Source of the DNA: an uncultured Roseibium sp.
Lineage (GTDB): Bacteria > Pseudomonadota > Alphaproteobacteria > Rhizobiales > Stappiaceae
Assembly: GCF_947499295.1 (NCBI RefSeq)
Contig: NZ_CANMNP010000021.1
Location: forward strand, 2,092-66,091
Direction: 5' to 3'
Length of the DNA: 64,000 bases
Under the pieces are notes generated by a model. It had not been told where the DNA came from and did not search any database. It worked only from the letters and a program-made list of their open reading frames with translations. A program made the translations under genes and the position numbers. Position 1 is the stretch's first letter; each line of letters opens with the position of its first letter. This document shows positions 35,616 through 63,189 of the stretch, piece after piece.

Positions 35616-35626
35616 ATCTGCACTCC

Positions 35627-38648: not shown

Positions 38649-38721
38649 GGGGAACGCTTCGGCAGTCTCCAATCTCTTTCAAAGGGATGGTGTAACGACT
38701 GAACAGAGCATCTCGTTGGCG

Positions 38722-39825: not shown

Positions 39826-39884
39826 TACTCTTCGCTCCCCTGGTAGGCCGCTCCTCCCCGACCGTTCAATCTGACTGTCATGAT

Positions 39885-40733: not shown

Positions 40734-41120
40734 TCAGGCGTATTCGTCGATCATGCTGACATGAGCCGCCACGACCTGCCATCCTGCATCCGTCCTGACC
40801 CAGGTCTGCATCTGGCGGCCGACCTTGCCCGGAGACGTGTCGCGGTAGAAGAGCGTTGCGGCTGTCGCAAAATCGGCTCCGTAGGTGGTAATGACGGTCT
40901 TGGCCAATGTCCGATCAAGATTGCCACCGGCCCTTGCCGACCGGAACGCGGCGATTTCAGCGTAGCCGTAGAGATTTTCCCCACCGCCATAGCGGATCGT
41001 GGTCGGCGCGTTCAGGAACAGCCGGTCCAGCGTATCGACATCATTGCTCACCAGCGCCGTCTCATATTCCTCGAAAACCGCCTCGACCTCTGCCTTAACG
41101 GCTGCGATGTTGATCTCCAT
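40734..41120 (-). CDS. atzH: AtzH/HpxZ-like protein (DUF3225, NTF2 fold)
   Basis: YETALVSNDVDTLD, IRYGGGENLYG, GRQMQTWVR and VAAHVS motifs. Linked to atzG/atzE. Confidence 0.85.
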   Translation of the reverse strand: MEINIAAVKAEVEAVFEEYETALVSNDVDTLDRLFLNAPTTIRYGGGENLYGYAEIAAFRSARAGGNLDRTLAKTVITTYGADFATAATLFYRDTSPGKVGRQMQTWVRTDAGWQVVAAHVSMIDEYA

Positions 41121-41896
41121 CAGTCTTGGCTCCCTGCAGTTTCCATGCGTGCACGCAGTTTATTTAGGAACGGGATGTCCCGGTACTGGTCCGGCTGCAC
41201 TTTATCCCAGGCGACACCGCGCGGCTGTGCGAAGGCCGTCCCGGTCTCGATAAGTTCCGCTTCCGTCGCGATGGCATGCAGCGGGCTGTCATGACCCATC
41301 ATCACCAGCCGGTCGTTGTCTACGACCTGTGAAGAATGCACCGTCGTCGTGATCGGCGCGTTCGGTTTCAGCTTCGAGAGTTCACGAAAGATGCCGAGTT
41401 CCAGGTCGGCAAATCCGCCGCCCTTTCCCGTGCGCGCGCCCTGACGGCTGACCGCAACGCAACCGACGACAACAAAATCCAGAAGCTCCATATCCTCGAA
41501 CTCGACCGGGTCGCCATGTTCGACGAAGCCTTGCGAGGTCGCCGCCAGTTCGAACTGGATACCTTTGCGCGCAAGTGTTTCGGGGTCCAGCCGGACGAAG
41601 GGAAAAGGCTTCAGGAGTTCCGGAACGGGCGCATAGACGATCTTGCCCTCGTAGAGCGCGCGCAGCCGGACCGGAATCTGCGGCGGATCGGGATTGCACT
41701 TGACGACCCTGGCCGCCTGCCATTCCGGCAGCCTGGCAAGGTTGCGAGCCGCCAAGTCCGCGCCGGCGAAATTCGGGATGCAGCTGAAAGCGGGCCCAAT
41801 GCTGGTCCCGCTGTCTTCGAGACCGGCCCAGACCGCCTGCCGGATATTGTCCTTGTCCTGATTCCGGCCCGCCCAGCGCGCGTTGTCCATGATCAT
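41120..41896 (-). CDS. 5-formyl-THF cyclo-ligase paralog (COG0212/MTHFSD-like)
   Basis: IPNFAGA, VKCNPDPPQ, DFVVVGCVAV and RTGKGGGFADLE motifs. Start at ATG 41896, overlapping the atzE stop; its own stop overlaps the atzH start. Confidence 0.8.
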   Translation of the reverse strand: MIMDNARWAGRNQDKDNIRQAVWAGLEDSGTSIGPAFSCIPNFAGADLAARNLARLPEWQAARVVKCNPDPPQIPVRLRALYEGKIVYAPVPELLKPFPFVRLDPETLARKGIQFELAATSQGFVEHGDPVEFEDMELLDFVVVGCVAVSRQGARTGKGGGFADLELGIFRELSKLKPNAPITTTVHSSQVVDNDRLVMMGHDSPLHAIATEAELIETGTAFAQPRGVAWDKVQPDQYRDIPFLNKLRARMETAGSQD

Positions 41897-43311
41897 GTCC
41901 CCTGGCTCACAAGTTCGGCCCGCCGGGCCGCGACTGGCGCTTTGCAGGTGCCGTCCTGCTCGAGGCGCGACGCAATCCTGAGCGCGATATCCTCCCGCCA
42001 CGCCGGTGCGATCACCTGGACGCCGATCGGAAGCGAAGCCTCTTCAAGCCAGACCGGCACCGCGACGACAGGCAGGCCGATAAAGGAGATCGGTTGGGTG
42101 AAGAGGCCGATATTCGGCCGCGCGGGCATAGTCTCCCCGTCGAGCGTGATGGTTTTCGTTCCGGAGGGAAGCGCCGAGAACGGCGTTGCTGGTGCCAGTA
42201 AGGCATCGACATGCTCGAAGATGCCGCGCATCATCGCCCGGAACCAGCTTCGGAAGCGCTGTGCCTGTTGCACCCAGAGGGCAGGGACCATGGTGCCGGA
42301 CAGGAACCTGTCGCGCGTGTCCGGATCGAAGTCCTGCGGCCTGTTGGTGATCCGCTCGAGATGAAGGGCGGCACCTTCCGCCACAGTGATCACATAGGCG
42401 GACGCGCGCGCCCTCGCAGCTTCGGGAATGTCGATTTCAGCCGAGACGCCAAGCGCGTTGGCAACCGCGTCCACGGCAGCAAGAGCTTCCGGTTCGGCTT
42501 TCTGCCTGAAATAGCCTCCGGCGACGGCGATCCGCAGGCCATCCGTGCCCTTTACCAGCTCCCCGCCCGTTGACAGGACCGGCCGATCCGGTTGGGCCGG
42601 ATCGCTGATGTCGCGTCCCTGCAGCGCATCGAACACCAGCGCAAGATCCTGCGCCGAGCGGGCCAGAGGGCCGAGATGATCGAGACTGCCGACAAACGGA
42701 AAGGTTCCGTGGCGCGACAGACGGCCATAGGTAGGTTTCAGCCCGAACAGGCCGCAGAAAGAAGAGGGCACGCGGATGGAGCCGTTGGTGTCCGAACCGA
42801 GGGTAACGGGAACCATGCCGCTGGCCACCGCCGAACCGGCTCCGGAAGAGGAGCCACCGCTCATGCGGCCGGGATCGTGCGGATTGAGGCAATTCCCGTC
42901 ATGTGCGTTTTCGCCGGTAAAGTCATAGGCGTATTCGCCCATGTGCAAGCCGCCCATCAGGATACCGCCGGCCCGGCACAGCTTGGTTGTCAGGGTCGCA
43001 TCGGTCGTGGCCGGCAGGTTTTCCAGGTTGATCTTCGACCCGGCCCGGGTCACCAAACCCTTGATGTCGAACAGGTTCTTGACCGCGAAAGGCACCCCGG
43101 CCAGAGGCAGATCCGCACCGACGGCAATCGCAGCATCAACGCTCTCGGCCTCGGCCATGGCCCGATCCGCGGTCACATCGGTGAACGCATTGAAAACCGG
43201 GTTGAGCGTCTCGATCCGCGACAGCGACGACCGGACGACGTCGACTGCCCTCAGCTCGCCAGATCCGACGGCGGAGGCAATCGCGGCCGCGCTTTCCGGT
43301 ACAGCGCTCAT
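41893..43311 (-). CDS. atzE: AtzE-family amidase (1-carboxybiuret hydrolase-like)
   Basis: Amidase signature KNLF, GGSSSG and GSDTNGSIR; YDFTGEN; RPNIGLFTQP. Confidence 0.88.
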   Translation of the reverse strand: MSAVPESAAAIASAVGSGELRAVDVVRSSLSRIETLNPVFNAFTDVTADRAMAEAESVDAAIAVGADLPLAGVPFAVKNLFDIKGLVTRAGSKINLENLPATTDATLTTKLCRAGGILMGGLHMGEYAYDFTGENAHDGNCLNPHDPGRMSGGSSSGAGSAVASGMVPVTLGSDTNGSIRVPSSFCGLFGLKPTYGRLSRHGTFPFVGSLDHLGPLARSAQDLALVFDALQGRDISDPAQPDRPVLSTGGELVKGTDGLRIAVAGGYFRQKAEPEALAAVDAVANALGVSAEIDIPEAARARASAYVITVAEGAALHLERITNRPQDFDPDTRDRFLSGTMVPALWVQQAQRFRSWFRAMMRGIFEHVDALLAPATPFSALPSGTKTITLDGETMPARPNIGLFTQPISFIGLPVVAVPVWLEEASLPIGVQVIAPAWREDIALRIASRLEQDGTCKAPVAARRAELVSQGT

Positions 43312-43493
43312 GCCTCGAACACCGGAGCAGCTTCGATGTCTTCCCCGAGTGGGAAGGACAGCACAAGTTCTGCGGCTTTCTGCGTGGCGGCGATATGGGC
43401 TTCCACGACGGGACGCCAGTCGTCCTCAATGGCCAGCCCCATGATTTTTTCCATGTGGGCGACATGCGAATTGGCATCGAATTCAGCGCTCAT
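43308..43493 (-). CDS. atzG: AtzG-like small subunit (DUF4089)
   Basis: 61 aa ending LVLSFPLGEDIEAAPVFEA, directly upstream of atzE. GGGAG RBS before ATG 43493. Confidence 0.8.
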   Translation of the reverse strand: MSAEFDANSHVAHMEKIMGLAIEDDWRPVVEAHIAATQKAAELVLSFPLGEDIEAAPVFEA

Positions 43494-43510
43494 GGACACT
43501 CCCGTTATTG

Positions 43511-44170
43511 CTATATTGCTTTTTCGAACGAAGCCAGCGGCGCGGTCCAGCCGACAATGCCGCCCTGCGCGCGGATCATGTCGAGTGTCGCCGCCTTGAA
43601 CGCAGGGAAATAGCTTTCCGTCGCCTCCTCGATCAGGAGACATTCGAAGCCGCGGTCATTGGCCTCGCGCATGGTTGTCTGGACGCAGACTTCCGTGGTA
43701 ACGCCGGCAAAGACCAGGCTTCTCGCACCAAGCTCTTCCAGGATAATGCCCAGCTCCGTTGCGTAGAACGCGCCCTTGCCAGGTTTGTCGATGACGGTTT
43801 CCCCGGCGACCGGCGCGCACTCGGCGATGATCTCGGCACCCGGCTCGCCCTGGATCAGGATCCGCCCCATAGGCCCGATGTCGCCAATCCGAAGCGCCGG
43901 GCTGCCACGGTCCCGTTTGGCGGGCGGACAGTTGCTCAGGTCCTGCGCATGCGTCTCCCGCGTATGGATGACAGGCCAGCCCTCCTCCCTGAACAGGCGA
44001 AGCAGCATTGCCGTTGGGGCGATGGCCCGTTGCATGTGGGAGATATCGTTGCCGAGCGTCTCGCCGAAGCCGCCCGGCTCTATGAAATCCCGCTGCATGT
44101 CGATGACGACCAGGGCCGTTGCGGCGGGGTCAAACGTGAACTCGAAAGGCGAAGCATCGACCGTGATCAT
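43511..44170 (-). CDS. trtA: Isochorismatase-like cysteine hydrolase, triuret hydrolase-like
   Basis: D-K-C triad ([26 protein letters not shown]). The GGFG..LGND, MGRIL and YFP..AQGGIVG motifs match my recollection of TrtA rather than BiuH. Start at ATG 44170. Confidence 0.72.
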
Positions 44171-45711
44171 CAGTGATGCCCCGCCATTGCATGGCCGATC
44201 GTGGCCCTGTCCGTTTCCGTCATAGGCGACTGGTATGTGACCCTGCCTTCCGACATTACCGCGACCGTGTCTGCAAGCTCCAGAATCTCGTCGAGATCCT
44301 CGGACACAAGAAGGATAGCGGCACCCTTGTTGCGCTGGTCCATGATCTGCGCCCGGATTTCCGCGACCGAGGCAAAATCGAGCCCGAAACACGGGTTGGC
44401 GACGATGAGGATATCGACCTCGTGAGACAGTTCCCGCGCCAGGATCGCCCGCTGTACGTTGCCGCCGGAGAGGTTCTCGATCGGCTCTTCGGTCGAGGGG
44501 GTCTTGACCCGGTAGGCGGCAATCAACTCTCGTGCCCGCTTGCGCATCGGCGGCGGCGAAAGCCAGCCCTTGAAAGGCGAGATCGGTGCCTTGTCGAAGG
44601 TTCGGAAGGCCATGTTTTCCGCAACGCTCATGTTTGGCACGGCCACGTTTTTCAAGGGTTCCTCGGAAAAGCCGAACACCTTGAACCGGTCCATTTGGTC
44701 CCGCTCCGGTTCATAGGGCTGCTTGTCGACGAAAATCCGTCCGTCCGTTGGCTGCCGCTGCCCGGACAGGACCTCGATCAACTCGGACTGGCCATTGCCG
44801 GAAACACCTGCGATGCCGAGGATCTCACCCGCGTGGATCTTCAGGCTGATCGCCTCAATGGCAGGCAGCTCAGAATCGTCATCCGCGAACAAACCGGCAA
44901 GCTCCAGCTTCAGGGCCTTCTCCGGCTGGTCTACCCGGGCCGCGCTTTCGCGGATCTCCGTTTCGCCGATCATCATGCGGCTCATTTCCTCGACGGAGAG
45001 ATCCTGAACCCGGCCACTGTCGACGACACGCCCGCGCCGCAGCACCGTGACATCATCGGCATAGGCCGTCACTTCCCGAAACTTGTGGGTGATCATAAGA
45101 ATGGTGAGCTCGCCCGCTTCGGTCATGCCGCGCAGGAGCCCGAGCACCTCGTCCGCCTCGTCCGGCGTCAGCACCGATGTCGGCTCGTCGAGGATCAGGA
45201 AGCGCTGATCGAGGTAGAGCTGCTTCAGAATCTCCAGCTTCTGCTTTTCGCCCGCGGAAAGGCTCGAGACCTGTACATCCAGCGGGACCTTGAAGGGTGT
45301 TGTCTCGAGAAAAGCATTGAGCGCCCTGCGTTCACTCTTCCAGTCGATCACCGCCGGGGTGTCGGCGCGGGCGATGACAAGGTTTTCCGCCGCCGTCAGG
45401 GACGGCACAAGCGTGAAATGCTGATAGACCATGCCGATCCCGCACGCATGTGCCGCGCGTGGATTGGGGATCTCGACTTCGCTGTCGTCGACCAGCATCG
45501 TGCCACTTGTCGGCTGGTAGAAGCCCATCATGCATTTGACGAGCGTGGATTTCCCGGCACCGTTCTCGCCCAAAAGCGCGTGAAAGGACCCGGGTGTGAC
45601 CCGGATCGACACGTCGTCGAGTGCGGTCAGGCTCGCAAACACCTTGGTCATGCCGAGGGTTTCAACGCCAATGGCTCGGAACTCAGGGTCCGCGAACTGT
45701 GTAACACTCAT
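44170..45711 (-). CDS. CUT2/nucleoside-type ABC ATPase (two NBDs)
   Basis: [17 protein letters not shown] and LSGGNVQR motifs. Start at ATG 45711. Confidence 0.92.
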
Positions 45712-46454
45712 TTCGGCGCTCCTCCGACGGCAAGTTCCAGTCCGGCCAGCAGCGCGTCGCTGTCGGCGACCGCACCGAAAACCCCACCCTGCATGGTCAC
45801 CATCTTCAGCGCCGCCTCGTGATTGCCTGGATCGGTCGCCGCGCAGCAATCCGACACAATCAGACATTCAAAGCCGCGGTCATTGGCCTCGCGCATGGTG
45901 GTGTGCACGCAAACATCGGTGGTGATCCCGGTCAGGATCAGGTTGTCGATGCCTCGGGTTCTGAGCAGCAGTTCCAGGTCCGTGGCGCAGAAGGAGCCCT
46001 TGCCCGGTTTGTCGATAACCGGTTCGCCGTCGGCGGGCGCAAGTTCGGGAATGATCTCCCAGCCTGGCTCGCCGCGAACCAGGATCTTGCCGCAGGGACC
46101 CGGGTCACCTATCCCCGCTCCGATCTGTTGGGACCGCCAGCGCTTGTTGGCCGGCAGATCGGCGAGATCCGGGCGGTGCCCCTCGCGGGTGTGAATGATG
46201 TGATAGCCTCTGGCACGCATGGACGCGAGCACCTTGCCGATCGGCACGATCGGCGCGCGTGTCAGGCCGATATCGTAGCCCATGCTGTCTACATAACCGC
46301 CTTTGCCGCAGAAATCGGTCTGCATGTCTATGATGATCAGCGCCGTGTTCTCCGGCCTGAGATCACCGTTATAGGGCCAGCTATAGGGAACCGAGGCGAC
46401 CTGCCCCTTGACCTCGTCCGCATCGAGCGTTTGCGCAAGGCTCATGTAAGTCAC
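45708..46454 (-). CDS. biuH: Biuret hydrolase
   Basis: [52 protein letters not shown] and MQGGVFG closely match my recollection of Rhizobium BiuH. Confidence 0.88.
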
Positions 46455-47470
46455 TCCGCCGCGTCGCTGAGGGCTTTTTCACCGAAAACCCGCACCGGCT
46501 CTTCGAAGCCGCAGGAGGTTCCGTCCGTGTGCAGGACCTCGTCTTCCCATGGCAACCGGTACCGACCCGCCGCGAGATCAGTCATGTAGGTGTAGGGACA
46601 GTCCTGCGCCCCGCCCTTCACGGCAACATAGCCGCGATGGCCAAACTGGTAGATATTGTTTTCCACGCTCCAATTGATGCGCGCCTCGCGCACGAGGTCC
46701 GGCCGGACCTCGGCGGTGATGATCTCGTTCGGCCGACCGTTGGTACCGTGGGCCAGGATTGTGCCGTCGAAATTGACGATCATGCCCTCGCCCATACTGT
46801 CGAAAGTTCCGTCAGTGCCGCACATGCAGACATTGGCAGTCACCATGAGATTGCAGAACGCGTTGGACTGGTTGGTGAATTTCCAGCTGTCACGGATCGG
46901 GGCCGTGTAGCCAGCGGTCCGGATCATGATTTCCGCGCCTTTGTAAGCGCATTCGCGGGCCATTTCCGGAAACATGCCGTCATGGCAGATGATCAGCGCC
47001 ATCCTGCAGCCGTTCGGGCCGTCGATCACCGGAATGCCCTGGTCTCCTGGCTCCCACGGCTCCACCGGCACCCATGGATGCATCTTGCGGTAATAGAGCT
47101 TCAGCTCGCCGGTATTGTCGATGATTAGCCCGGAATTGTAGGGCATGCCGCCGGGATTCAGCTCCATGATGGAGAAGCAGCCCCAGATGTCGTTGTCGAC
47201 ACAGGCCTGCTTGAAGGCGGCAACCTCCGGCCCGTCGAGCGAGCACATGATGTCCGGGTTGGTGTCCATTGACAGGCCGTGCAGGGCGTATTCAGGAAAG
47301 ACGACCATATCCATGCTCGGCATGTTGCGCCGCGCCTTGGCCACCATGTCGACAATCACCTGCGTCTGGTTCGCAAGGTCGACCTCGCTCACCACCGTCG
47401 GCAGCTGCAGCTGCACCATGCCCAGGACCACGCCGTTCGGGGCTTTATTCAGTCCACCAAGTCCGCTCAT
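46451..47470 (-). CDS. Formamidase (nitrilase superfamily, AmiF-like)
   Basis: E-K-C triad: [20 protein letters not shown] and IICHDG. Confidence 0.82.
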
Positions 47471-47481
47471 GTCGTGGCTCC

Positions 47482-48405
47482 TTATTTGGTGATCGAGAGT
47501 TCGCCCGGCGCACCCTTAAGGGACCGCCTCGGTGAGGAGCTCGCAATCATGATCAAGAGGGTGAGGATGTAGGGCGCCGCATTGAAGAAGTGATAGCCGC
47601 GCGAGATGCCGATGGACTGCAGCGCTGGTCCGAGCGCCCCTGCCGCGCCGAAGAGCAGCGCCGCCCAGAAGCAGGCGATCGGGTTCCACCTGGCAAAGAT
47701 CACCAACGCAACTGCCATCAGGCCCTGACCCGACGACAGACCTTCCGTCCAGCTGCCCGGATAGTAGAGCGACAGGAAGGAACCGCCGATGCCGGCGAAA
47801 AACCCGCCCGCCATGGTCGACAGCAACCGGACCTTGTCGACATTGATGCCGAGCGCGAGGGCTGCCGGTGCACTGTCACCGGTGGTGCGGATGGTCAGGC
47901 CGTACCGGGTGTTCTTGAGCGCCCACCAAAGGAACACGGCAAGCGCGATGCCAAGCAGGAACAGCGGATTGATTTCCAGTGCCTGGCGTACGCCCGGATG
48001 TTCGCTCCAGGTGCCGAAGGAGATCGACGGCAAGCGCGGTGCGGATGGCTGGATATAGGCCTTGCCGAAAAAGAAGGCGAGGCCCGTGCCGAACAGCATC
48101 AGGGCGATGCCGATGGCAATGTCGTTGACCTTCGGCAGCTTGCACAGATAGCCGTGCAGTGCCCCGAAGCCCGAGCCGCAGATGCCGGCGACGAGCACGC
48201 CCAGCCAGGGTAAGCCCGTGTGATAAGAAATCGCGTAACCGGACATGGCACCGAAGACGAGTGTTCCCTCGAGACCCAGATTGATGCGGCCGGATTTCTC
48301 CGTCAGCATTTCACCCAGACTGACGAACAGGAACGGGGTCGAAACCCGGATGGCTCCGGCAAACATCGCCAGAAGCACGGTCATGAGACCTGCGTCGCCG
48401 CTCAC
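47482..48405 (-). CDS. ABC permease (nucleoside/BMP type)
   Basis: GEMLTEKSGRINLGLEG and GQGLMAVALVIFARWNP motifs. Confidence 0.9.
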   Translation of the reverse strand: MSGDAGLMTVLLAMFAGAIRVSTPFLFVSLGEMLTEKSGRINLGLEGTLVFGAMSGYAISYHTGLPWLGVLVAGICGSGFGALHGYLCKLPKVNDIAIGIALMLFGTGLAFFFGKAYIQPSAPRLPSISFGTWSEHPGVRQALEINPLFLLGIALAVFLWWALKNTRYGLTIRTTGDSAPAALALGINVDKVRLLSTMAGGFFAGIGGSFLSLYYPGSWTEGLSSGQGLMAVALVIFARWNPIACFWAALLFGAAGALGPALQSIGISRGYHFFNAAPYILTLLIMIASSSPRRSLKGAPGELSITK

Positions 48406-49517
48406 AGCACCCCTCCTTTAGACCTGAAGATGGCAAAGCGTCCGTAGAAGGTTTCGGACACCAGGATGACCAGAAACAGCAGCCCCTGCAGGACCAGCAC
48501 CGTTGCATCCGGCAGGTCCATACGCCGTTGGATCAACCCACCCGAAGCGGCGATGCCTCCGAGGAAGATGGCCACGGGTATGATCACCAGTGGATTGTGG
48601 CGTGCGAGAAACGAAACAAGGATCCCGGTAAAGCCGTAGCCCGCGATCAGCGAGGCATTGGCCTTACCGTGTATGGCCGCCACCTCGAAGAATCCGGCAA
48701 GCCCCGCGCAGGCCCCCGCGATTGCGCAGGACACCACGACCAGCCGACCAACAGGCAGACCCTGCGCCTGGGCGGCCCTGAGATTGCCGCCGGCGATCTG
48801 AGCGGCAAAGCCGAAGGTGGTCCGGTTCATCAGCAGATAGAGCAGCCCGCACAGGACAACGCCGGTCAGCAGTCCCCAGTGCACGTCCGTGCCGGGGATT
48901 GCGCCGATCATGTTGTCCGAGCCGATCGGCCGTGTTGACGGCTTGTTCGGATCGGAGGGATCGCGCAGGGCGCCTTCGACGAAGAAATTCAGGATCGAGA
49001 CGGCAATGTAGAACATCAGCAACGAGGCGATAGTCTCGTTGACACCCCGGTAGTGGCGCAGCGCACCGACGCAGCCGATCCAGAGGCCACCCGCCAGCAT
49101 GGCGGCGATCACCATGACACCGAGCAGCAGGAAGCCGGGCGCCCAGTCGACCATGGGAATGGCGATCGCAGCTGCAGCGAAACCGCCGAGCACCAGCGCG
49201 CCCTCGCCGCCGATGATGACAAGCCCGAGCCGCGCCGGAACGGCAACGCACAGCGCCGTAAAAATGAACGGCGCGGAGCGCACCAGTGTATTCTGCCAGG
49301 AAAAACTCGTGCCGAAGCCGCCGCGCCAGACCAGCGAGAAGAAGTCCGCTGGAGATTTGCCGAGTGTGAGCAGGAAAATGGAGAAAAGGATGCCAGAAAA
49401 GACCAGCGCCAGAAGGGGAATTACCACATATTCCGCCGAGCGCCGAAACCTATCCAGAAGATCGGCCGCGAAGCTGGATTGAACGGCAATCCCGGGTGTT
49501 TCCGTGGTATCTGCCAT
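48402..49517 (-). CDS. ABC permease (nucleoside/BMP type)
   Basis: IGGEGAL, GVNETIASLL and GYGFTGILVSFLAR motifs. Start at ATG 49517. Confidence 0.9.
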   Translation of the reverse strand: MADTTETPGIAVQSSFAADLLDRFRRSAEYVVIPLLALVFSGILFSIFLLTLGKSPADFFSLVWRGGFGTSFSWQNTLVRSAPFIFTALCVAVPARLGLVIIGGEGALVLGGFAAAAIAIPMVDWAPGFLLLGVMVIAAMLAGGLWIGCVGALRHYRGVNETIASLLMFYIAVSILNFFVEGALRDPSDPNKPSTRPIGSDNMIGAIPGTDVHWGLLTGVVLCGLLYLLMNRTTFGFAAQIAGGNLRAAQAQGLPVGRLVVVSCAIAGACAGLAGFFEVAAIHGKANASLIAGYGFTGILVSFLARHNPLVIIPVAIFLGGIAASGGLIQRRMDLPDATVLVLQGLLFLVILVSETFYGRFAIFRSKGGVL

Positions 49518-49635
49518 ACCTTCTCCCTGAAGATTGGGCTGCTGCCGCACCATTCGTCGACAGACGCACCGAATTCCTGGCCACACCGGAGGCCCGTTTT
49601 CCAACGGGCTCGTCCAATGTGGCGGTTTTCTTCGA

Positions 49636-50748
49636 TCAGGTGATCGAGCCGATCACGCCTTCGATCAGGTAGTCGGTCTGGTCGAGGGAGGGTTCGTAAT
49701 TTTCGAAGCTGGCGCCTGCAGCCAATAGCGACGAACCGTCCTGTTTGTTGATCGGGCCGACAAAGATCGACTTACCGGCCTTGACGTCCGCGCGGGCCGC
49801 GTCAGCGGCCGCGATTGCGGCTTCCGTCGCGCCAGCGCCGTAAGGCGTGGAGCGCACGAAATCGACATCGAACCCGCCGCCGGTGAAGTTCGGCAACGGC
49901 TCGCCCTCGGCCAGATCTGTGGCGAACATCTTGTAAATGGTCTCCCACTTGTATTCCGCGCCGGTGATAAAGCCATTCGGTGCCAGAGGTGACTGGGAGG
50001 CATTGTGGCCACAGCACTTGATGCCGCGGGACTCGGCAGTTTCGATCACCACCTTCGGTCCGTCGACATGACAGGTGAGCACATCGCAACCGGCATCGAC
50101 CAGGGCGTTAGCGGCCTCGGCTTCGCGAACCGGCATCGACCATTCACCGGTGAAGATCACCTGGACCGTGGCTTCCGGATTGACCTTGCGTGCGCCCAAA
50201 AGGAAGGAATTGATGTTGCGCAGGACTGTGCCGATCGGTTTGGCTGCGACAAAGCCGAGCTTGTTGCTTGTCGTCGACAGGCCAGCAGCAACACCGTCTA
50301 CATAATGCGCCTGGTCGAGATATCCGAAATAGCTGCCGGCATTCTTCGGGTCGGCCTCGGTCCAGAGCGGTGCAGCGTGGCGGAATTCGACGTCGGTATA
50401 TTTCGCCGCCAGATCCAGCACGAACGGTTTGTAGTAGCCGAAGGAGGTCGCGAAGATCAGCTTGGCGCCGTCCAGGTTAATCATGGATTCCATGGATTTC
50501 TGAACCGCGATCGTTTCCGGCACGTTTTCCTCTTCCACCACCGTTACGCCCGGCACGTCCTTCAGGGCGGTGGCGGCGACGGCATGAGCCTGGTTCCAAC
50601 CGAAGTCGTCACGCGGACCGACATAGACAATGCCGACAGTCAGCTCTGACGCTTGCGCCAGCCGCGGCAACCCGGCCGAGGACAACGCGGCAAGGCCCGC
50701 TGCGGATGATTTCAGGATGGTTCGGCGAGAGAGTTCGAATTTAGACAT
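49636..50748 (-). CDS. BMP-family ABC substrate-binding protein (Tat signal)
   Basis: SRRTILK twin-arginine signal; YVGPRDDFGWNQAH and IFATSFGY motifs. Confidence 0.9.
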   Translation of the reverse strand: MSKFELSRRTILKSSAAGLAALSSAGLPRLAQASELTVGIVYVGPRDDFGWNQAHAVAATALKDVPGVTVVEEENVPETIAVQKSMESMINLDGAKLIFATSFGYYKPFVLDLAAKYTDVEFRHAAPLWTEADPKNAGSYFGYLDQAHYVDGVAAGLSTTSNKLGFVAAKPIGTVLRNINSFLLGARKVNPEATVQVIFTGEWSMPVREAEAANALVDAGCDVLTCHVDGPKVVIETAESRGIKCCGHNASQSPLAPNGFITGAEYKWETIYKMFATDLAEGEPLPNFTGGGFDVDFVRSTPYGAGATEAAIAAADAARADVKAGKSIFVGPINKQDGSSLLAAGASFENYEPSLDQTDYLIEGVIGSIT

Positions 50749-50816
50749 GACGTCCTCCGTATTATGACGAAGCCACGCAGTACCCGCCTGCCTCCGTCTT
50801 GCCTCTGGTTAATTTT

Positions 50817-50832
50817 AGCAATCCCTGTGCCA
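50817..50832 (-). promoter_or_regulatory. sigma54 promoter of the BMP-ABC/biuret operon
   Basis: Consensus TGGCAC-AGGGA-TTGCT, about 70 bp upstream of the SBP ATG, with AT-rich DNA further upstream. Confidence 0.85.
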
Positions 50833-50999
50833 ACTCGCCCTGCTCCGGGCACAACAGTCCGGAATCTTTCAAGGTGCTGACTTACAAGTTGTTTTCCTGT
50901 TCCTTCCCCAGTCCCCGGGCCATTACCCCAAGCCTTTTCAAGTGAACGGCACTTTTGATTTTGCCTATTTATTAATCACTTGCTGTTTTTGATTATATT

Positions 51000-51983: not shown

Positions 51984-52000
51984 CCTGCGCATCCGCCTTT

Positions 52001-53824
52001 TCACTCAGCCGCCGCAACGGGCTGCTGCGCCGTCACCGACGCAATGAATTTCCGCCAGCTGCCGAGATGGGAAATGTTCTCCGCGCGCTCAACCCCGGCG
52101 GCCTCGCAGATGAAGCCGGTCACACTGGTACTGTCGGAGAGGTCCACCGTACCCAGGCCGAGCGGCGCCGGAATACCGGCCAGGAACCCGCCCACTTCGG
52201 TGGCGGGCAGCGCCCAGACTTCCAACTCGATCGCGGCACCTGAGCCCGCAGGTCCACGCACGAGACCGGGCCGTTTCGGCGGACCGCCCGCAAGCGCAAA
52301 AAGTGAATAGGCATCGCTGGTCTCGGCAGACTTCAGAAAGCGCCCGCCGCGCCCAGTCAATTCGCCGTTCAGCGCCATACCGGACATGTGTGCGCCACAG
52401 ACCGCAATGGCGATCTCACTGGTATCGGGAGCGGGTTGAAGATCTGCCGGGGCGGGCAGTGCCCAGCCTGTCGCACCAAGCGTGTGCGGCGCCATCTGTT
52501 CCAGCCGGCTGCCGACCGCAGCCAGGAAACCGTCGCGGCCCGCGGACGCCAACAGGGTCACGTTGCCCGGCCGTCCGTCCGAACGCGGTTTCACCGGCAC
52601 AGCGAGGCCACACATGTCCAGAAGGTTGACGAAATTGGTGTAGGTGCCGTTTCGCGAATTCGGACCGACCGGGTCGGCTTCGAGATCGGCCACGCTGTAG
52701 AAGGTCGGCATGGTCGGTACGCACAGAAGATCCAATTCAGACAGGACCGGCTCCGTTTTCCGGGCAAGCTCCTTCAGCCGGTAGAACCCCCGGAACGCAT
52801 CCGTCGCACTCAGGTCCAGCGCAGCCCCGACGATTTTGCGGGTCACCGGGTGGACTGCCTCCAGATTCTCGTTCATCAGTTCTTCGATGACCGTATGCCG
52901 CTCGGCGACCCAGGCCCCCTCGTAAAGCATGTGTGCGACATCGTAGAAGGGCGTGAAATCGACCTCGACGATCTCTGCCCCTTCCGCCCTCAGCAGTGCG
53001 ACCGTGTCGCGGAAGGACTGTTCCTGGACGGCATCTCCGCAGAACTCGATTGATCCCGCATCCGGTATGCCGATCCGCAGGCTGGGCGGCACCGGTGACA
53101 GGTCCGGAGCGGCGATCTTTCTGGAATAGGCATCGGCTTCGTCGTATCCGGCGGCAGCCTGATATGCGGTGTAGGCATCCTCCACCGTGAGGGCGAAAAT
53201 CGAAATCGTGTCGAGTGTGCGGCAGGCCGGTACAACACCGGATGCGGAGAGAGCGCCGAGCGTCGGCTTCAGGCCGACGATGTTGTTGAGCGCCGCCGGT
53301 ACCCGGCCGGAGCCGGCCGTATCCGTTCCGAGCGAGAAACTGACGATGCCATGGCCGACCGCAACGGCGGACCCGGAAGAGGAGCCACCCGGAACGATAG
53401 CCGGGTCTACGGAATTTTTTGGCGGCTGGTAGGGAGATCGCACGCCGACCAGCCCGGTCGCGAACTGGTCGAGATTCGTCTTGCCGATCAGAAGTGCGCC
53501 CGCCTGGCGCAGGTTCCTGACGACAAAGGCATCTTCCCCGGCCTGATACTCGTAGGCTGGACAGGCGGCCGTGGTCGGTTTGCCACCCGCGTCGATATTG
53601 TCCTTGATGACAAAGGGAATACCCCAGAGCGGTTTCGTGGCGTTGAACGCTCCGAGTTCGGCCGCCTGCTCAAGCACTTCCTGCTTGTCGAGGAGATAGA
53701 TGAAAATGCCCGGATCGCCGATGGTCTCGATCCGCCTGTAGACTTCCTCGACAATATCCGCAGGGCTTGCTCCGCCAGAATAGGCGGTCTTCAGGGATGA
53801 AAGCGTAAAGGGAAGATCGAACAT
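52001..53824 (-). CDS. atzF: Allophanate hydrolase
   Basis: KDNID, GKTNLDQFATGL, GGSSSGS, GTDTAGSGRVP and the C-terminal VCGAHMSG domain. GAGGAC RBS before ATG 53824. Confidence 0.95.
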   Translation of the reverse strand: MFDLPFTLSSLKTAYSGGASPADIVEEVYRRIETIGDPGIFIYLLDKQEVLEQAAELGAFNATKPLWGIPFVIKDNIDAGGKPTTAACPAYEYQAGEDAFVVRNLRQAGALLIGKTNLDQFATGLVGVRSPYQPPKNSVDPAIVPGGSSSGSAVAVGHGIVSFSLGTDTAGSGRVPAALNNIVGLKPTLGALSASGVVPACRTLDTISIFALTVEDAYTAYQAAAGYDEADAYSRKIAAPDLSPVPPSLRIGIPDAGSIEFCGDAVQEQSFRDTVALLRAEGAEIVEVDFTPFYDVAHMLYEGAWVAERHTVIEELMNENLEAVHPVTRKIVGAALDLSATDAFRGFYRLKELARKTEPVLSELDLLCVPTMPTFYSVADLEADPVGPNSRNGTYTNFVNLLDMCGLAVPVKPRSDGRPGNVTLLASAGRDGFLAAVGSRLEQMAPHTLGATGWALPAPADLQPAPDTSEIAIAVCGAHMSGMALNGELTGRGGRFLKSAETSDAYSLFALAGGPPKRPGLVRGPAGSGAAIELEVWALPATEVGGFLAGIPAPLGLGTVDLSDSTSVTGFICEAAGVERAENISHLGSWRKFIASVTAQQPVAAAE

Positions 53825-53848
53825 TTTTGTCCTCAATGTCTCTTGTTC

Positions 53849-59026: not shown

Positions 59027-59126
59027 AGCAATCCCCTCTTGGCAGGAAAGGGGAGAAGGCCCTTCCCACTGGCCTTCACGATGCGCGTCTTTGGTGAGTA
59101 CTTCTATTGCTATTTTTGCACCTTTG

Positions 59127-59145
59127 TGCTTCGTAATTTGCAGCA
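59127..59145. promoter_or_regulatory. LysR box TGCT-N11-AGCA
   Basis: Dyad with T-N11-A spacing in the divergent promoter, about 20 bp before the lysR ATG. Confidence 0.55.
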
Positions 59146-59165
59146 CCATACGCAAAGCATTGAAA

Positions 59166-60095
59166 ATGAAACACCTTCAAACACTCAAGCTGATCGACGC
59201 GGTGAACAAGGCAGGCTCCATTCGCAAGGCCGCCGAAGACATGAACATCACCTCGTCCGCCCTGAATAGGCGCATCCTGGGGTTCGAGGAGGAATTCGGC
59301 GCACCCATTTTCGAGCGTCTGCATGGCGGCGTACGCCTCAACCCGGCCGGCGAGCTGCTGATCCAGCACATCCGCGGCCAGATCGCCGATCTCGAGCGGG
59401 TCCGCAGCCAGGTGGCCGACCTGTCGGGCCTGCGCCGCGGCCATGTCAGCATCGCTTGTTCCCAGGCGATTCAGCCCTATTTCATGCCAGCCCAGATTGC
59501 CGCCTACCGGGCGGAACATCCCAGCGTCTCCTTCTCCGTCCACGTGCGCGACCGGGATGCGGCGGAAGAAGACCTACGCGCCTTCGAAAGCGACCTCGCC
59601 CTCGTATTCGAACCGGTTCACCTGGGAGATTTCGATGTGCTCCTCTCGGTGGAACAGCCGGTTTACGCGGTCATGGCCAGGGACCATCCCCTTGCGGCGA
59701 AGGAAAAGCTCCGCCTGCGGGACTGCCTAGGCTTTCCGCACATTGTTCCGCCGAAGCGGATCGGCATCCGCTACCTTCTCGACCTTGCCGTTGCCAGCAT
59801 GAGCCAGAAGATGGAGCCGACCGCAGAAGCCGATTCCTTTGAATTCATGCGTCACTATGTGCAGCAGGAAGCGGCCGTCGGCTTCCAGTTCCCCATCGGG
59901 CTCAACCTGTCCGGCGATGACCGCCTGACCTTCCGCCCGCTCGCCAAGGAAGACGTGCCCTATGGCAACCTGACCCTGATGCAGATGCGTGGCCGGACCC
60001 TGTCCGTCGCCTCGGCTCGATTCGCCAACCAGCTTGCGGCGGCCCTCAACAGCTTGCCGAACGAACTGATCAGGCTTGCCCGGCAATCGCGTTGA
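59166..60095 (+). CDS. LysR-family transcriptional regulator
   Basis: GSIRKAAEDMNITSSALNRRI HTH. Divergent from the dpp-atzF operon. Start at ATG 59166. Confidence 0.92.
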   Translation: MKHLQTLKLIDAVNKAGSIRKAAEDMNITSSALNRRILGFEEEFGAPIFERLHGGVRLNPAGELLIQHIRGQIADLERVRSQVADLSGLRRGHVSIACSQAIQPYFMPAQIAAYRAEHPSVSFSVHVRDRDAAEEDLRAFESDLALVFEPVHLGDFDVLLSVEQPVYAVMARDHPLAAKEKLRLRDCLGFPHIVPPKRIGIRYLLDLAVASMSQKMEPTAEADSFEFMRHYVQQEAAVGFQFPIGLNLSGDDRLTFRPLAKEDVPYGNLTLMQMRGRTLSVASARFANQLAAALNSLPNELIRLARQSR

Positions 60096-61638
60096 ACCGG
60101 TAAGACGGCGGGCTCGTCTCCGGATAGCGGGCTTCGAACCAGTCCGCCATGTATCGGACAAGGCGCGCCGTTCGGTTCCGTGCTTCCATTTCGGACACAG
60201 TGAAGGGCGCGGACAGCAAGGCGCCTATTTCCTCAAGAACCATGTCTCGGTCTATCGAGATCACCCTGCCATCGGCGACGACCTTGCAGCCGCCGACAAA
60301 GACCGTCCGCGCGGCCATCTGCCTGCTGCGCTGCAGGACCGCATCTACCAGAGGCACACTGTCATCTATGAAAGGACGGGCAATGTCGGCCCAGTCGACC
60401 AGGACAACGTCCGCCGCCTTGCCAGCGTCCAGTCGCCCGATACGCCCCTCGAAGCCCGTGCTCGCCGCGCCGTGTTCCGTCGCCATCCTGAAAACATGCC
60501 CGGCAGACGGGCGGAAGGTGTCCAACCCCGGCTCCCGGTGCAGCGCCCAGGCCAGCCGCATCTCCTGAAGCATGTCGCGGTCATCGTTGATCCCGGCCTG
60601 GTCGATGCCGAGGCAGACGGGCACACCCCTCTTCAGCATCTCGTTGACAGGCGCGATGCCGCTGGCTAGACGCAGGCCCGAACTGGCATTGTGACAGATG
60701 GTACAGCCGCAGTTGCGAACGAGGTCAAGGTCTTCCGGGTCGGTCCAGATGCCGTGGCCGAGCGTAAGGTTGCCTGTCAGACAGCCGAGATCCGCAAGAT
60801 GGCGAATGGCTGACTTGCCATAGGTCCGCCGGGCAAATTCCGCCTGCAGCCGGGTTTCCACCAAATGCATGTGGATCTTCGAACCCGTGCGTGCCGCCGT
60901 GTCGAAAATGGCACTCAGGCAGTCATCTGAGCACCAGTGCAGGTTGGCCGGTGCGAGCTGCCAGGACACCCCGTCCGGATCCGATTTTGCCCAGACAGTC
61001 TTTTGCTCCTCGAACCAGCTCATGTGGGATAAGATCGGCGCCTTGCTCGCGGCAAGCTTCGGCCGCCAGTAGGCAGCCTCATCTTCCGGTAATCCGGACA
61101 GGAACGGTTCGTCGTCTTCGTGAACGAGCTGGTTGCGGTCCCGGATCATGAAGGAGAAGGACACTCGCATACCGATGTCGCGATAGGCCCCGATCACCTT
61201 GTTTGACAGATTGGTCCAGGTGTCCGGTTCACCTGTAAGGCCGGGGTGAATATGCTGGACCGTCGTCGTACCTGATTCCAGCATCTCGATCGCCGAATAG
61301 AGCGTGTCGAGCCTGTGCCCTACATAACGCATGCCCCGGAACTGCGGCAGCCAAAGCTCCAGCGGCCCGTAGGGAACCCCGAGCTGGAGCGGCGTCAGCC
61401 CCGAATGGTGATGGCTGTTGACGAGGCCTGGAAAGGCAATTGCGTCAGGCCCACCCTCGACCGGCAGGTCCGGATGGTCGGTGCGCAGATCCTCAAAGGG
61501 TTTCACGGCGACGACAAGCCCGTCCCGGACATGGATAGCCGCGCCTTCGATCACCTCACCAGTTGAGGCATCGTCGACGCCGGTGATCGTGGCACAGGTA
61601 CGGATCAGGAATTCCCGGTCGGCCGGACAGTCACTCAT
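60070..61638 (-). CDS. Metal-dependent amidohydrolase (AtzA/TrzA/8-oxoguanine deaminase-like, COG0402)
   Basis: GLVNSHHH, IHMHLVET, LGHGIW and CLGIDQAG motifs. Start at ATG 61638. Confidence 0.85.
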   Translation of the reverse strand: MSDCPADREFLIRTCATITGVDDASTGEVIEGAAIHVRDGLVVAVKPFEDLRTDHPDLPVEGGPDAIAFPGLVNSHHHSGLTPLQLGVPYGPLELWLPQFRGMRYVGHRLDTLYSAIEMLESGTTTVQHIHPGLTGEPDTWTNLSNKVIGAYRDIGMRVSFSFMIRDRNQLVHEDDEPFLSGLPEDEAAYWRPKLAASKAPILSHMSWFEEQKTVWAKSDPDGVSWQLAPANLHWCSDDCLSAIFDTAARTGSKIHMHLVETRLQAEFARRTYGKSAIRHLADLGCLTGNLTLGHGIWTDPEDLDLVRNCGCTICHNASSGLRLASGIAPVNEMLKRGVPVCLGIDQAGINDDRDMLQEMRLAWALHREPGLDTFRPSAGHVFRMATEHGAASTGFEGRIGRLDAGKAADVVLVDWADIARPFIDDSVPLVDAVLQRSRQMAARTVFVGGCKVVADGRVISIDRDMVLEEIGALLSAPFTVSEMEARNRTARLVRYMADWFEARYPETSPPSYRFNAIAGQA

Positions 61639-61721
61639 GCCCCTTGTCCCCATGCTGTGCGGCACATTCCTTCAGCGCGCCGCAGCAGTGCTTCCCGGCT
61701 GTCCGCCTGCCTGCCCGCGAC

Positions 61722-61763
61722 CGTTCTATCGACCAGCTCCATCTGCTGCTGGTTGATAGAACG
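61722..61763. repeat. 16-bp inverted repeat (one mismatch) in the intergenic gap
   Basis: CGTTCTATCGACCAGC (61722-61737) / GCTGGTTGATAGAACG (61748-61763). Confidence 0.7.
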
Positions 61764-61929
61764 ACAATCGCGTGTCGTCTCGCATCTCCGGAAGCCATGC
61801 CTACCTCATTTTGTGTACTCGAAACTTTTCTTCAGTATCGGCGATTGCAAGCTATTCGCATCAGGAATGGTTCTTTGCCGAGGAAGGCACGCTCCGGGAG
61901 CGTGGATCGGTTTTTCTTGTCCGGAATTG

Positions 61930-63189
61930 TCAAACGGTCTCCGTTTCGACCTCGTGTCCCTGGACCGTCTCCGGCGCCAGCAGCCGCGCTACCGGCTGTT
62001 CGAAGCTGATGCGTCCCAGCTTCATGCCCCAGCTAGGCCGCGCAATCTCGGCGATCGCCTGTGCGCCCGTCTCGGCGGGCAAGGCGACGAAAGTCGCCTC
62101 TTCGCCGACCACCAATGAACGGGGCCGGCTGATCAGCTGCATGGGCGCCGCCGTGACCATATCGAAACAGGCTTCCAGCTCGGTCGCTGTGCTCAGCTGA
62201 TGCACATTGGCATAAAGATTGGCCACGCGCGTCAGCGAACAGTCGCCATAAGGCGTGAACGGGTTGAGCACATTGTTGGTCGCGACTGTGCAACAGACAC
62301 CGGCAGCATGGAATACATGCGCCGGCGCGACACCCCGCGGAACAAGATGATCGCGGTTCCGACCCATCAGGAAGAGATCCGTTACCGGCAGCACCGTCAG
62401 AGCGATGCCGGCGTCCTTCATCAGCAGGACAGACTCCCGAAGCTGGCGCGGCGGCAAGGCCGACAGCTTGGTGACATGGCCAATGGCGACCCTGCCCTGC
62501 CAGGCGAAGGCGATGGCCTGGCGCGCGATCTCGTCCAAATGCCGCCAGCCTGGATCCAGATCAAAATCCAGATGAAAATCCAGATCAACGTCATGGCGCG
62601 TTGCCATCTCGAACAGGAGCCGGATCTGGGCATTCGGATCGGTGTCGGTATAGGGACAGCCACCGAGCACATCCGCCCCTTTCGAAAGCGCCGCCTCGAG
62701 CAGTTCCTCAGTTCCCGGATTGTTGGTCATGCCTTCCTGAGGAAAGACGCATATCTGCAGGTCGAGCGCCCAGGCAAAGTCCCGTTTCAGCCGCAGAACG
62801 GCATTAAAACCGGTCAGGCCGATCACCGGATCGATCTCGACATGGGTGCGCATGGCGTTGGTGCCCTGGACGATCGCCTTCTTAAGAACCCTGGCACCGC
62901 GCGCGTGGACATCCTCCTCCGTGAAGCCCATCTTCGCCACTCCGACAGAGGCGATCGCCCCCTCAAGCGTACCTGTCTCGTTGTGACAGCGGTCCAGGAT
63001 ACAGGCCTTGTCGAGATGAATATGGCTTTCGACGAACCCGGGCGTCAGCAGCGCCCCGTTGCCTGAAACCTGCCGGACGTCGGTCACGATACGCGGCCCG
63101 ATTGCCGCGATCAGGCCATTGCGGACGAGAAGATCCACGCGGGACGCATGATCCGGAAGCCTGACGTCACGAATGACGCATTCACTCAT
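61930..63189 (-). CDS. Cytosine deaminase-like (CodA fold) amidohydrolase
   Basis: GFVESHIHLDKA, RTHVE, VFPQEG, DFHLD, IGHVTKL and TNNVLNPFTPYG motifs. Confidence 0.85.
   Translation of the reverse strand: MSECVIRDVRLPDHASRVDLLVRNGLIAAIGPRIVTDVRQVSGNGALLTPGFVESHIHLDKACILDRCHNETGTLEGAIASVGVAKMGFTEEDVHARGARVLKKAIVQGTNAMRTHVEIDPVIGLTGFNAVLRLKRDFAWALDLQICVFPQEGMTNNPGTEELLEAALSKGADVLGGCPYTDTDPNAQIRLLFEMATRHDVDLDFHLDFDLDPGWRHLDEIARQAIAFAWQGRVAIGHVTKLSALPPRQLRESVLLMKDAGIALTVLPVTDLFLMGRNRDHLVPRGVAPAHVFHAAGVCCTVATNNVLNPFTPYGDCSLTRVANLYANVHQLSTATELEACFDMVTAAPMQLISRPRSLVVGEEATFVALPAETGAQAIAEIARPSWGMKLGRISFEQPVARLLAPETVQGHEVETETV

Follow-up and report, generated by a model that had tools for sequence, protein, structure and literature searches.

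The occurrence of triuret and biuret hydrolase genes beside a formamidase, an oxygenase and two amidohydrolases raises the question of which nitrogen compounds are degraded by such a locus, and by which route they would enter it. The locus lies in a 64,000-nucleotide stretch of DNA from an uncultured Roseibium sp. (G000:C21:2092-66091), referred to here as the window; the host genome is 6.4 Mb in size, with a guanine plus cytosine (GC) content of 54.9%. Triuret and biuret are known as fertilizer impurities and as products of urate oxidation, and the pathway for their breakdown was defined only in 2018-2021. A preliminary description of the locus had proposed an upstream extension of this pathway, in which oxidized purines or azapyrimidines would be degraded by way of formylbiuret and related compounds. 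The reading preferred here, to which a probability of about 0.6 is assigned, is that the core of the known triuret/biuret pathway is joined by a formamidase branch and by three modules that would feed further substrates into it. All of the genes listed in the preliminary description (TrtA, BiuH, AtzEG, AtzH, AtzF, formamidase, a COG0212 protein, a 2-oxoglutarate (2OG) oxygenase and the amidohydrolases) are indeed present on the minus strand and in the place given. Its interval, 40734-63189, contains these genes but falls short of the island, which continues to ∼69.3 kb with a Liv-type transporter, a SnoaL-like gene and a GntR gene.

The central enzyme, TrtA (43511..44170, minus strand), is an isochorismatase-like cysteine hydrolase predicted to be a triuret hydrolase from its similarity to Herbaspirillum TrtA (6XIX), with which it scores 300 bits, whereas its scores with BiuH structures are 214 and 193 bits. 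The catalytic triad D24-K129-C162 is present, with numbering identical to that of the 6XIX alignment, and is invariant across six orthologs. The residues that discriminate TrtA from BiuH were listed in the TrtA paper (PMC7948467), and at these positions the protein is of TrtA type in seven of seven cases (F35, N41, A134, E160, Y187, Q202 and I205). The biuret amidohydrolase BiuH (45708..46454, minus strand) passes the NF050097 equivalog model with 423.7 bits (cut-off 370), scores 410.7 bits with BiuH of Rhizobium leguminosarum (6AZO) and has, where TrtA and BiuH are told apart, residues of BiuH type (Y, Y, S, D and T). Between the two genes lies that of the ATPase, with two cassettes, of a BMP-type ATP-binding cassette (ABC) importer (44170..45711, minus strand; NCBIfam ABC ATPase matches); it overlaps the stop of biuH at its own start and the start of trtA at its own stop. 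The other components of this importer are also encoded on the minus strand: permease 2 (47482..48405; BPD_transp_2-type by NCBIfam and Pfam), permease 1 (48402..49517; NCBIfam; an ATG with a ribosome-binding site, giving 371 amino acids as in the orthologs) and a BMP/PnrA-family substrate-binding protein, the presumed triuret/biuret binder (49636..50748; Pfam Bmp, 111.8 bits).

Eighty loci seeded on TrtA, each from a different species, were searched by tblastn with all of the island proteins, and an intact core was found in 64. In these 64 species-representative loci the order BmpSBP-permease-permease-(formamidase)-BiuH-(AtzD)-ATPase-TrtA is kept, and with it the position of the ATPase gene between biuH and trtA. 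Clusters of trtA, biuH and atzF, with or without trtB, and the bmpA-nupABC transporter have already been published (PMC7948467, PMC12625717), the transporter having been noted in nitrifier genomes (PMC12625717).

Two side observations concern other settings of these genes. On plasmid pC of Rhizobium etli CIAT 652 (L088) the trtA-biuH cluster adjoins an annotated cytosine deaminase, an FAD-linked oxidase and an NMT1-type ABC system, with further amidohydrolase, isochorismatase and dioxygenase genes nearby. BiuH homologs occur on 202 plasmid records of a plasmid collection, including plasmids of Pantoea, Klebsiella and Enterobacter.

The enzymes predicted to act after TrtA are encoded on either side of this group, again on the minus strand. 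The AtzG-like small subunit (43308..43493; Pfam AtzG-like, 51.9 bits) was given a start at M51 of its open reading frame (ORF), as set by ortholog length (61-67 amino acids), and overlaps atzE by 4 bp. The AtzE-family amidase (41893..43311), a homolog of the large subunit of 1-carboxybiuret hydrolase, scores 675 bits with NF006631 (cut-off 461). The product of the AtzH-like gene (40734..41120; Pfam AtzH-like, 184.6 bits), whose start overlaps the end of the COG0212 gene by 1 bp, is a predicted decarboxylating enzyme of the AtzH/TrtB/HpxZ family (DUF3225, NTF2-like). TrtB, AtzH and HpxZ form one family, and the island protein both passes the NCBIfam HpxZ model (185.9 bits, cut-off 135) and resembles AtzH: it scores 138.9 bits with AtzH of Pseudomonas ADP (6BJT), and its residues Y19 and R43 stand at the positions of Tyr22 and Arg46, the catalytic residues of that enzyme (PMC6219798). 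In other species the AtzH-like gene stands directly after trtA, in the position published for trtB. The allophanate hydrolase AtzF (52001..53824), with an amidase domain and a C-terminal domain, passes the TIGR02713 equivalog model over residues 43-599 (758 bits, cut-off 511). An AtzH-like gene is found in 27 of the 64 TrtA clusters, AtzE in 18 and AtzF in 36, the last independently of the formamidase. Elsewhere in the genome (G000:C22:5343-6949, L095) there is another atzG-atzE pair, with 65% and 69% identity to that of the island; it is flanked by cytochrome oxidase genes on one side and a HAD hydrolase gene on the other, and AtzH, COG0212 and TrtA are absent from its surroundings.

At the level of sequence, the assignment of the core (40734-53824) to the already published triuret/biuret polyureide pathway can be regarded as settled. 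Triuret and biuret would be taken up by the BMP-type importer, and TrtA would deamidate triuret to 1-carboxybiuret. From there two routes are predicted. Loss of CO2 would give biuret, which BiuH would convert to allophanate; alternatively, AtzE-AtzG would deamidate carboxybiuret to 1,3-dicarboxyurea, from which the AtzH-family protein would produce allophanate. AtzF would then release ammonia and CO2. In this scheme TrtA and BiuH each remove a terminal carbamoyl nitrogen. The downstream half of the preliminary description, from triuret through carboxybiuret and biuret or dicarboxyurea to allophanate and ammonia, corresponds to the published TrtA/BiuH/AtzEGH/AtzF pathway (PMC7948467), with which the sequence agrees in detail.

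The clearest addition to this pathway is a formamidase. The protein (46451..47470, minus strand) belongs to the nitrilase superfamily, is of the AmiF/FmdA type and passes the NF009803 equivalog model with 573 bits (cut-off 406); a candidate Glu-Lys-Cys triad (E60, K129 and C162) was read by eye, with no alignment to a characterized formamidase. The gene is found in 34 of the 64 TrtA clusters, and in 33 of these it lies between permease 2 and biuH. The exception is Paraburkholderia bengalensis (L047), where it has been placed independently between the ATPase gene and trtA. The link holds at a wider scale as well. Among 301 evenly sampled genomes of the bacterial order, formamidase orthologs are present in 38, and 37 of the 38 have a TrtA-family gene (background 78 of 301); in 28 of the 38 (∼74%) the formamidase gene is at most 6 kb from trtA. 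On a tree of BiuH and TrtA its presence changes at least 15 times, and at least seven of these changes are forced by well-supported branches. The formamidase is therefore an integral and widely conserved member of TrtA clusters. A search of the literature returned no paper that pairs a formamidase with a biuret hydrolase; the link is robust and, as far as could be found, undescribed. The idea that the formamidase substitutes for AtzF was rejected, since the presence of the two genes is independent (Fisher p = 1.0).

The simplest explanation for the formamidase, and the preferred one, is a formyl-ureide branch that yields formamide. TrtA or BiuH would deamidate N-formylbiuret or formylurea, CO2 loss would leave formamide, and the formamidase would cleave it to formate and ammonia, a role parallel to that of AtzF for allophanate. 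TrtA is measurably active on formylurea, at 0.3% of its activity on triuret and above that on biuret (PMC7948467), and this side activity is compatible with such a branch.

A second point concerns the cyanurate hydrolase AtzD. As the preliminary description had noted, the window has no AtzD and no urease, although a urease alpha gene is present elsewhere in the genome, on contig C14. The absence of AtzD extends to the whole genome: a PF09663 search of the 6.4 Mb was negative, and tblastn with the AtzD of a relative gave no match at E ≤ 1e-3. Since AtzD was recovered from 7 of 41 relatives by the same family search, its absence here is credible. In Hartmannibacter, Breoghania, Rhizobium, Agrobacterium and others AtzD occupies a fixed slot of the same cluster, flanked by biuH and the ATPase gene; it is present in 7 of the 64 TrtA clusters, all of which also carry the formamidase. 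The fixed slot indicates that the cluster type is a joint cyanurate/triuret/biuret cluster, of which the window holds an AtzD-less version. The classic route from melamine or ammeline to cyanurate is disfavored because AtzD is absent.

Two of the remaining enzymes appear to belong together. The first is an Fe(II)/2OG oxygenase of the IPNS/EFE-like family (51000..51983, minus strand; Pfam DIOX_N and 2OG-FeII_Oxy), in which the iron triad (H207-x-D209 and H263) and the 2OG-binding R274-x-S276 are intact. Its nearest structures are an ancestral EFE reconstruction (9OVH), PaIPNS, which has no known function, and thymine dioxygenase; since 9OVH, the best PDB match, is an ancestral reconstruction and 6JYV is without known function, neither names the substrate of the oxygenase. 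In Roseibium, Polymorphum, Hartmannibacter, Pseudoxanthobacter and Breoghania the cluster is headed by orthologs with 61-88% identity. The second is a paralog of the COG0212 (5-formyltetrahydrofolate cyclo-ligase) family (41120..41896, minus strand; PF01812, 67 bits), for which searches of NCBIfam and of PDB sequences gave no match; its ATG is at 41896, in a 4-bp overlap with the atzE stop. COG0212 occurs in 8 of the 64 TrtA clusters, always with an AtzH-like gene and three times without AtzE. The oxygenase (at least 55% identity) is present in 4 of the 64, that is, in four of the eight clusters with COG0212 and in none of the 56 without it (Fisher p = 1e-4). By co-occurrence, the oxygenase and COG0212 form a clade-specific sub-module. 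Both are also found in AtzD-bearing clusters.

The two amidohydrolases lie at the far end of the window. In the TRZ/ATZ-type enzyme (60070..61638, minus strand) the residues of a canonical deaminase site are present (HxH at 85-87, HxxE at 267-270, H303 and D354). Its best NCBIfam match is to the TRZ/ATZ family (174.6 bits), and it falls under the cut-off of every named subfamily. The CodA/AtzC-fold enzyme (61930..63189, minus strand; 137 bits to E. coli CodA) has a non-canonical active site: HxH and two further histidines are kept, whereas E217 of CodA is replaced by Phe and D313/D314 by Asn/Asn. At the positions of HxxE and H-D-D-V-F-D this family has HLDF and T-N-N-V-L-N, respectively; across 120 homologs with at least 57% identity the former is invariant, with its L present in 118 of them, and the latter, as T-N-N-x-x-N, almost so. 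The conservation of these replacements indicates a functional family with altered chemistry rather than a pseudogene, and without the Glu and Asp the CodA-like enzyme does not qualify as a canonical deaminase. The preliminary description had called both enzymes deaminase-fold; a canonical deaminase site is present in TRZ, whereas the CodA-like enzyme lacks the Glu and Asp of such a site.

The two genes often stand together. TRZ orthologs (at least 51% identity) are present in 10 of the 301 genomes, all 10 of which have TrtA, and the CodA-like gene is adjacent to or near TRZ in 7 of the 10; the two are adjacent in at least six other genomes. Within the genus at least two placements of the pair next to the triuret cluster are seen, at the AtzF end (the genome studied here and G016) and at the AtzH end (G013). 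In G022 the CodA-like gene alone is beside the cluster, at the AtzH end, and in G142 its ortholog directly follows the cluster, 3.2 kb downstream of trtA. A 575-residue protein, P0303, combines a CodA-like domain (66% identity) with a C-terminal AtzH-like domain (71% identity to that of the window); it comes from a 2.2 kb metagenomic contig and is either a real fusion or an artifact of assembly or gene calling. TRZ and the CodA-like gene are a conserved gene pair, adjacent to the cluster in some lineages only. The congeners with AtzD (G001, G012, G018, G023 and G024) are without close (≥70%) orthologs of the pair, and AtzD is absent from those in which orthologs of the CodA-like gene or TRZ at this level occur (G000, G003, G013, G014, G016 and G022).

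In Labrys monachus (L089, 6778-10560) a formamidase ortholog (79%) and a TRZ ortholog (62%) are 1.2 kb apart, with only a flavin reductase gene between them, at a distance of 2.8 Mb from trtA. This neighborhood is a single case and is suggestive. A general linkage between TRZ and the formamidase was rejected, since their adjacency is seen only in Labrys and Roseibium. As a side observation, Devosia sp. SL43 (L090) has a DUF1989 gene, TRZ (54%) and a convergent CodA-like gene (46%) together, along with a GGT gene, a second amidohydrolase, a BMP binding protein 63% identical to that of the island and a BMP-type ABC system; a DUF1989 gene precedes TRZ in Roseibium sp. Sym1 as well.

The genes of the locus described above are all part of one stretch of GC-rich DNA (∼62% GC, compared with 54.9% for the genome) that runs from ∼41 kb to ∼69.3 kb, positions past 64000 being given as window-equivalent coordinates (extension locus L002). 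The island is ∼28.5 kb long, with ∼5.3 kb of it past the end of the window. Judged from its sequence, this is a nitrogen-scavenging island of mosaic structure that was acquired horizontally by a Roseibium-like marine alphaproteobacterium; the names borne by close homologs point to Roseibium (Stappiaceae). Gene starts were chosen from ortholog lengths and ribosome-binding sites, and every gene in the stretch except that for LysR is on the minus strand. By position, the AtzH-like, COG0212, AtzE, AtzG, TrtA, ABC ATPase, BiuH, formamidase, two permease and BMP-family binding protein genes come first; after a gap of 250 bp follow the 2OG oxygenase, AtzF, a Dpp-type ABC system and the divergent LysR gene, and then the TRZ/ATZ-type and CodA-like amidohydrolases, a Liv-type ABC system, a small SnoaL-like gene and GntR. 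Overlaps of 1-4 bp join atzH to COG0212, COG0212 to atzE, atzE to atzG, trtA to the ATPase gene, the ATPase gene to biuH, and biuH to the formamidase gene.

The island thus encodes three ABC importers, of BMP, Dpp and Liv type. The Dpp/Opp-type importer consists of a fused ATPase (53849-55501), two permeases (55498-56373 and 56370-57401) and a family-5 binding protein (57401-59026), all on the minus strand and assigned by NCBIfam matches. Its arrangement is identical in Roseibium sp. Sym1, and Dpp-type genes stand beside AtzE/AtzH again in the beta-proteobacterial TrtA clusters L038, L046, L064 and L076. The LysR-type regulator (59091..60095, plus strand; NCBIfam LysR matches) is given as the maximal ORF, the true start being probably near 59166; it is divergent from the dpp-atzF-oxygenase genes and has an ortholog with 94% identity in the equivalent position in Roseibium sp. 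Sym1. Of the Liv-type system the window holds the 3' part of a permease-ATPase-ATPase fusion gene (63186..64000, minus strand; Pfam), which encodes 855 amino acids and extends to window-equivalent 65753. Past it, to ∼69273, a Liv-type permease, a binding protein, the SnoaL-like gene and GntR were assigned by Pfam on the L002 ORFs. An Rfam scan of the window and extension found no riboswitch or other RNA family. In a promoter and terminator scan of 40-60 kb the number of sites was no higher than in shuffled sequence, so operon boundaries cannot be drawn from it.

The island is bordered by DNA of different composition. Directly upstream (26838-40520) the window holds a complete assimilatory nitrate/nitrite gene set of genome-typical GC, comprising cysG, a nasA-type reductase, nirB, an nrtABC-type transporter, a NasS-like sensor and the NasT ANTAR regulator. 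Directly after the island an ORF of 2418 amino acids (L002 7646-14902, window-equivalent ∼70.5-77.8 kb) lies in low-GC DNA (43-53%).

In the preferred reading the three add-on modules would bring further substrates into the funnel formed by the core, a step held with less confidence than the formamidase branch. These are the LysR-controlled Dpp-type importer with AtzF and the 2OG oxygenase (which co-occurs with COG0212), the GntR-controlled Liv-type importer, and the pair formed by the TRZ-type deaminase, with its canonical site, and the non-canonical CodA-fold amidohydrolase. That they are feeders is plausible, on correlative evidence. One possibility for their substrates is C-H or amino s-triazines derived from oxidized purines or azapyrimidines. 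A more specific version, which is speculative and considered unlikely, makes the TRZ/CodA-like pair an AtzD-independent entry, by which amino or C-H s-triazines would become formyl- and carboxy-polyureides for TrtA, BiuH, AtzEG and AtzH; the formamidase would take the one-carbon remnant, and the 2OG oxygenase with COG0212 would provide an oxidative, ATP-dependent variant.

Several observations weigh against this overall reading. On formylurea TrtA reaches only 0.3% of its activity with triuret (PMC7948467), and about half of the TrtA clusters have no formamidase. The AtzH-like protein also passes the model for HpxZ, which acts in oxalurate metabolism, so that oxalurate-like ureides could be the substrates of the AtzGEH enzymes instead. 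A cassette of GntR, SnoaL, LivK, LivH, LivMGF and the amidohydrolase stands alone in Thalassospira, the same Liv-CodA-like cassette is 0.84 Mb from the triuret cluster in Breoghania, and the CodA-like gene is solitary in Salipiger. Of 50 genomes with the CodA-like gene, 18 lack TrtA, and TRZ orthologs occur in unrelated contexts in Hartmannibacter and elsewhere. Finally, the genome-level p-values for co-occurrence, such as the naive p = 9e-9 for TRZ and TrtA in 10 genomes that span only ∼5 families, ignore phylogeny and genome size.

The leading alternative, which has an appreciable though minor chance of being correct, is that the island is an ordinary triuret/biuret cluster with unrelated neighbors. 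The Dpp, Liv, TRZ and CodA-like genes, and perhaps the oxygenase, would be independent nitrogen-scavenging cassettes, and the formamidase would use imported or endogenous formamide. Indeed, these parts do occur independently, as the Liv-CodA-like cassette of Thalassospira and Breoghania, as TRZ in varied contexts and as Dpp genes with AtzE/AtzH in beta-proteobacteria, and the island adjoins nitrate-assimilation genes, which suggests that nitrogen genes gather here anyway. It would not, however, account for the fixed slot of the formamidase inside the operon or for the 74% of its orthologs in the order that lie in TrtA clusters. The presence of TrtA in all 10 TRZ-bearing genomes, the repeated linkage of TRZ and the CodA-like gene to the cluster in different arrangements, and the fusion of CodA-like and AtzH-like domains in P0303 also argue against it.

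The model of the preliminary description is judged quite unlikely in its specific form. In that model azapyrimidines of the 5-azacytosine or oxonate type would be deaminated by TRZ, and the ring would be opened, by the CodA-like enzyme or spontaneously, or hydroxylated by the 2OG oxygenase, to give N-formylbiuret, triuret or carboxybiuret for TrtA, BiuH and the formamidase. The 5-azauracil ring does open to N-formylbiuret. The integral place of the formamidase in the cluster, the canonical deaminase site of TRZ, the Labrys TRZ ortholog found 1.2 kb from a formamidase ortholog and away from trtA, and the absence of AtzD both here and in the congeners that carry the pair all speak for it. However, nothing in the data identifies 5-azacytosine, 5-azauracil or oxonate as the substrate, the natural abundance of such compounds is doubtful, and a literature search on the catabolism of azauracil, formylbiuret or oxonate returned nothing relevant. 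The TRZ-formamidase adjacency is also narrow, and the oxygenase and COG0212 recur in AtzD-bearing clusters. What stands of the description as a whole is the downstream half, the absence of AtzD, an integral formamidase that would fit a formyl-ureide/formamide branch, and a conserved TRZ/CodA-like pair. Other points are weakened or lack support: the cluster is not distinct from cyanurate metabolism, the CodA-like enzyme is non-canonical and elsewhere stands alone with Liv genes, and TRZ is also found in unrelated contexts.

Very unlikely, in our estimate, is an oxalurate/allantoin branch, in which AtzG, AtzE and AtzH would be enzymes of HpxXYZ type whose substrate is oxalurate, produced in purine breakdown, and not carboxybiuret. 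In its favor, the score of the AtzH-like protein exceeds the NCBIfam HpxZ equivalog cut-off, and most AtzGEH clusters occur outside cyanurate contexts (PMC6219798). Against this, the island has no HpxW/GGT and no allantoin genes, and its AtzGEH genes are translationally coupled to trtA. The match to Pseudomonas AtzH with its catalytic residues kept, and the trtB-like position of the gene directly after trtA in other species, also count against this branch. Highly improbable, lastly, is an AtzD-independent s-triazine route in which TRZ would deaminate ammeline- or ammelide-type compounds and the CodA-fold enzyme would replace AtzD as ring opener, supplying carboxybiuret to AtzH/TrtB and AtzEG: AtzD and close (≥70%) orthologs of the pair are mutually exclusive within the genus, the ammelide hydrolase AtzC is a CodA homolog and P0303 carries the relevant fusion, but G038 has both AtzD and the CodA-like gene, the formamidase is left unexplained, and we know of no precedent for ring opening by a CodA fold with Asn in place of the metal-binding Asp.

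On the preferred reading, of a known core with a formamidase branch and feeder modules, the results bear on the natural sources of polyureides. A formamidase that is present in about half of the clusters, in a fixed slot, and that in the order is found mostly there, suggests a natural substrate range that includes formyl-ureides. The oxygenase/COG0212 pair gives a functional context to an orphan family of COG0212 paralogs, as the TRZ/CodA-like pair does to a CodA-fold family with an altered active site, and both hint at natural upstream sources of polyureides, the open question of the field. If the AtzD-independent entry were true, it would represent a natural, herbicide-independent pathway of triazine-ring catabolism with a new ring-opening enzyme.

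Among described systems, the closest is the triuret/biuret pathway of Herbaspirillum sp. BH-1 and Rhizobium leguminosarum 3841 (TrtA, TrtB, BiuH and AtzF; Tassoulas et al., 2021, PMC7948467), with which the island shares TrtA and BiuH paralogs flanking an ABC ATPase, a BMP-type importer, an allophanate hydrolase, an AtzH/TrtB-family protein and identical discriminating residues in TrtA. It differs from the published triuret schemes (PMC7948467, PMC12625717) in having AtzG-AtzE, COG0212, the formamidase, the 2OG oxygenase, two ABC importers and two amidohydrolases in addition. The cyanuric acid operon atzDGEHF of Pseudomonas sp. ADP (PMC6219798) has the homologs of AtzG, AtzE, AtzH and AtzF, the AtzG-AtzE order and the catalytic residues of AtzH in common with the island; in contrast, the genome studied here has no AtzD, its atzE and atzH are separated by a COG0212 gene, and BiuH and TrtA are added. 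The HpxWXYZ oxalurate genes of Klebsiella resemble the island in that its AtzG, AtzE and AtzH score as HpxX/Y/Z-like and the HpxZ model is passed, but HpxW (a GGT-family oxamate amidohydrolase) and allantoin genes are missing and the genes are coupled to trtA. With E. coli CodA and AtzC the CodA-like enzyme shares the fold, HxH, the strand-5 and strand-6 histidines and Gln156, and departs from CodA in having Phe for Glu217 and Asn/Asn for Asp313/Asp314. The formamidase resembles the AmiF/FmdA enzymes in passing their equivalog model and in its candidate Glu-Lys-Cys triad, whereas its housing in a trtA-biuH operon sets it apart. Formamidases of methylotrophs are found in the context of fmdB or of urea/amide transporters. 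Beyond the known pathway, then, the formamidase slot, the oxygenase/COG0212 sub-module and the TRZ/CodA-like pair are new, and their repeated linkage points to undescribed side or feeder routes.

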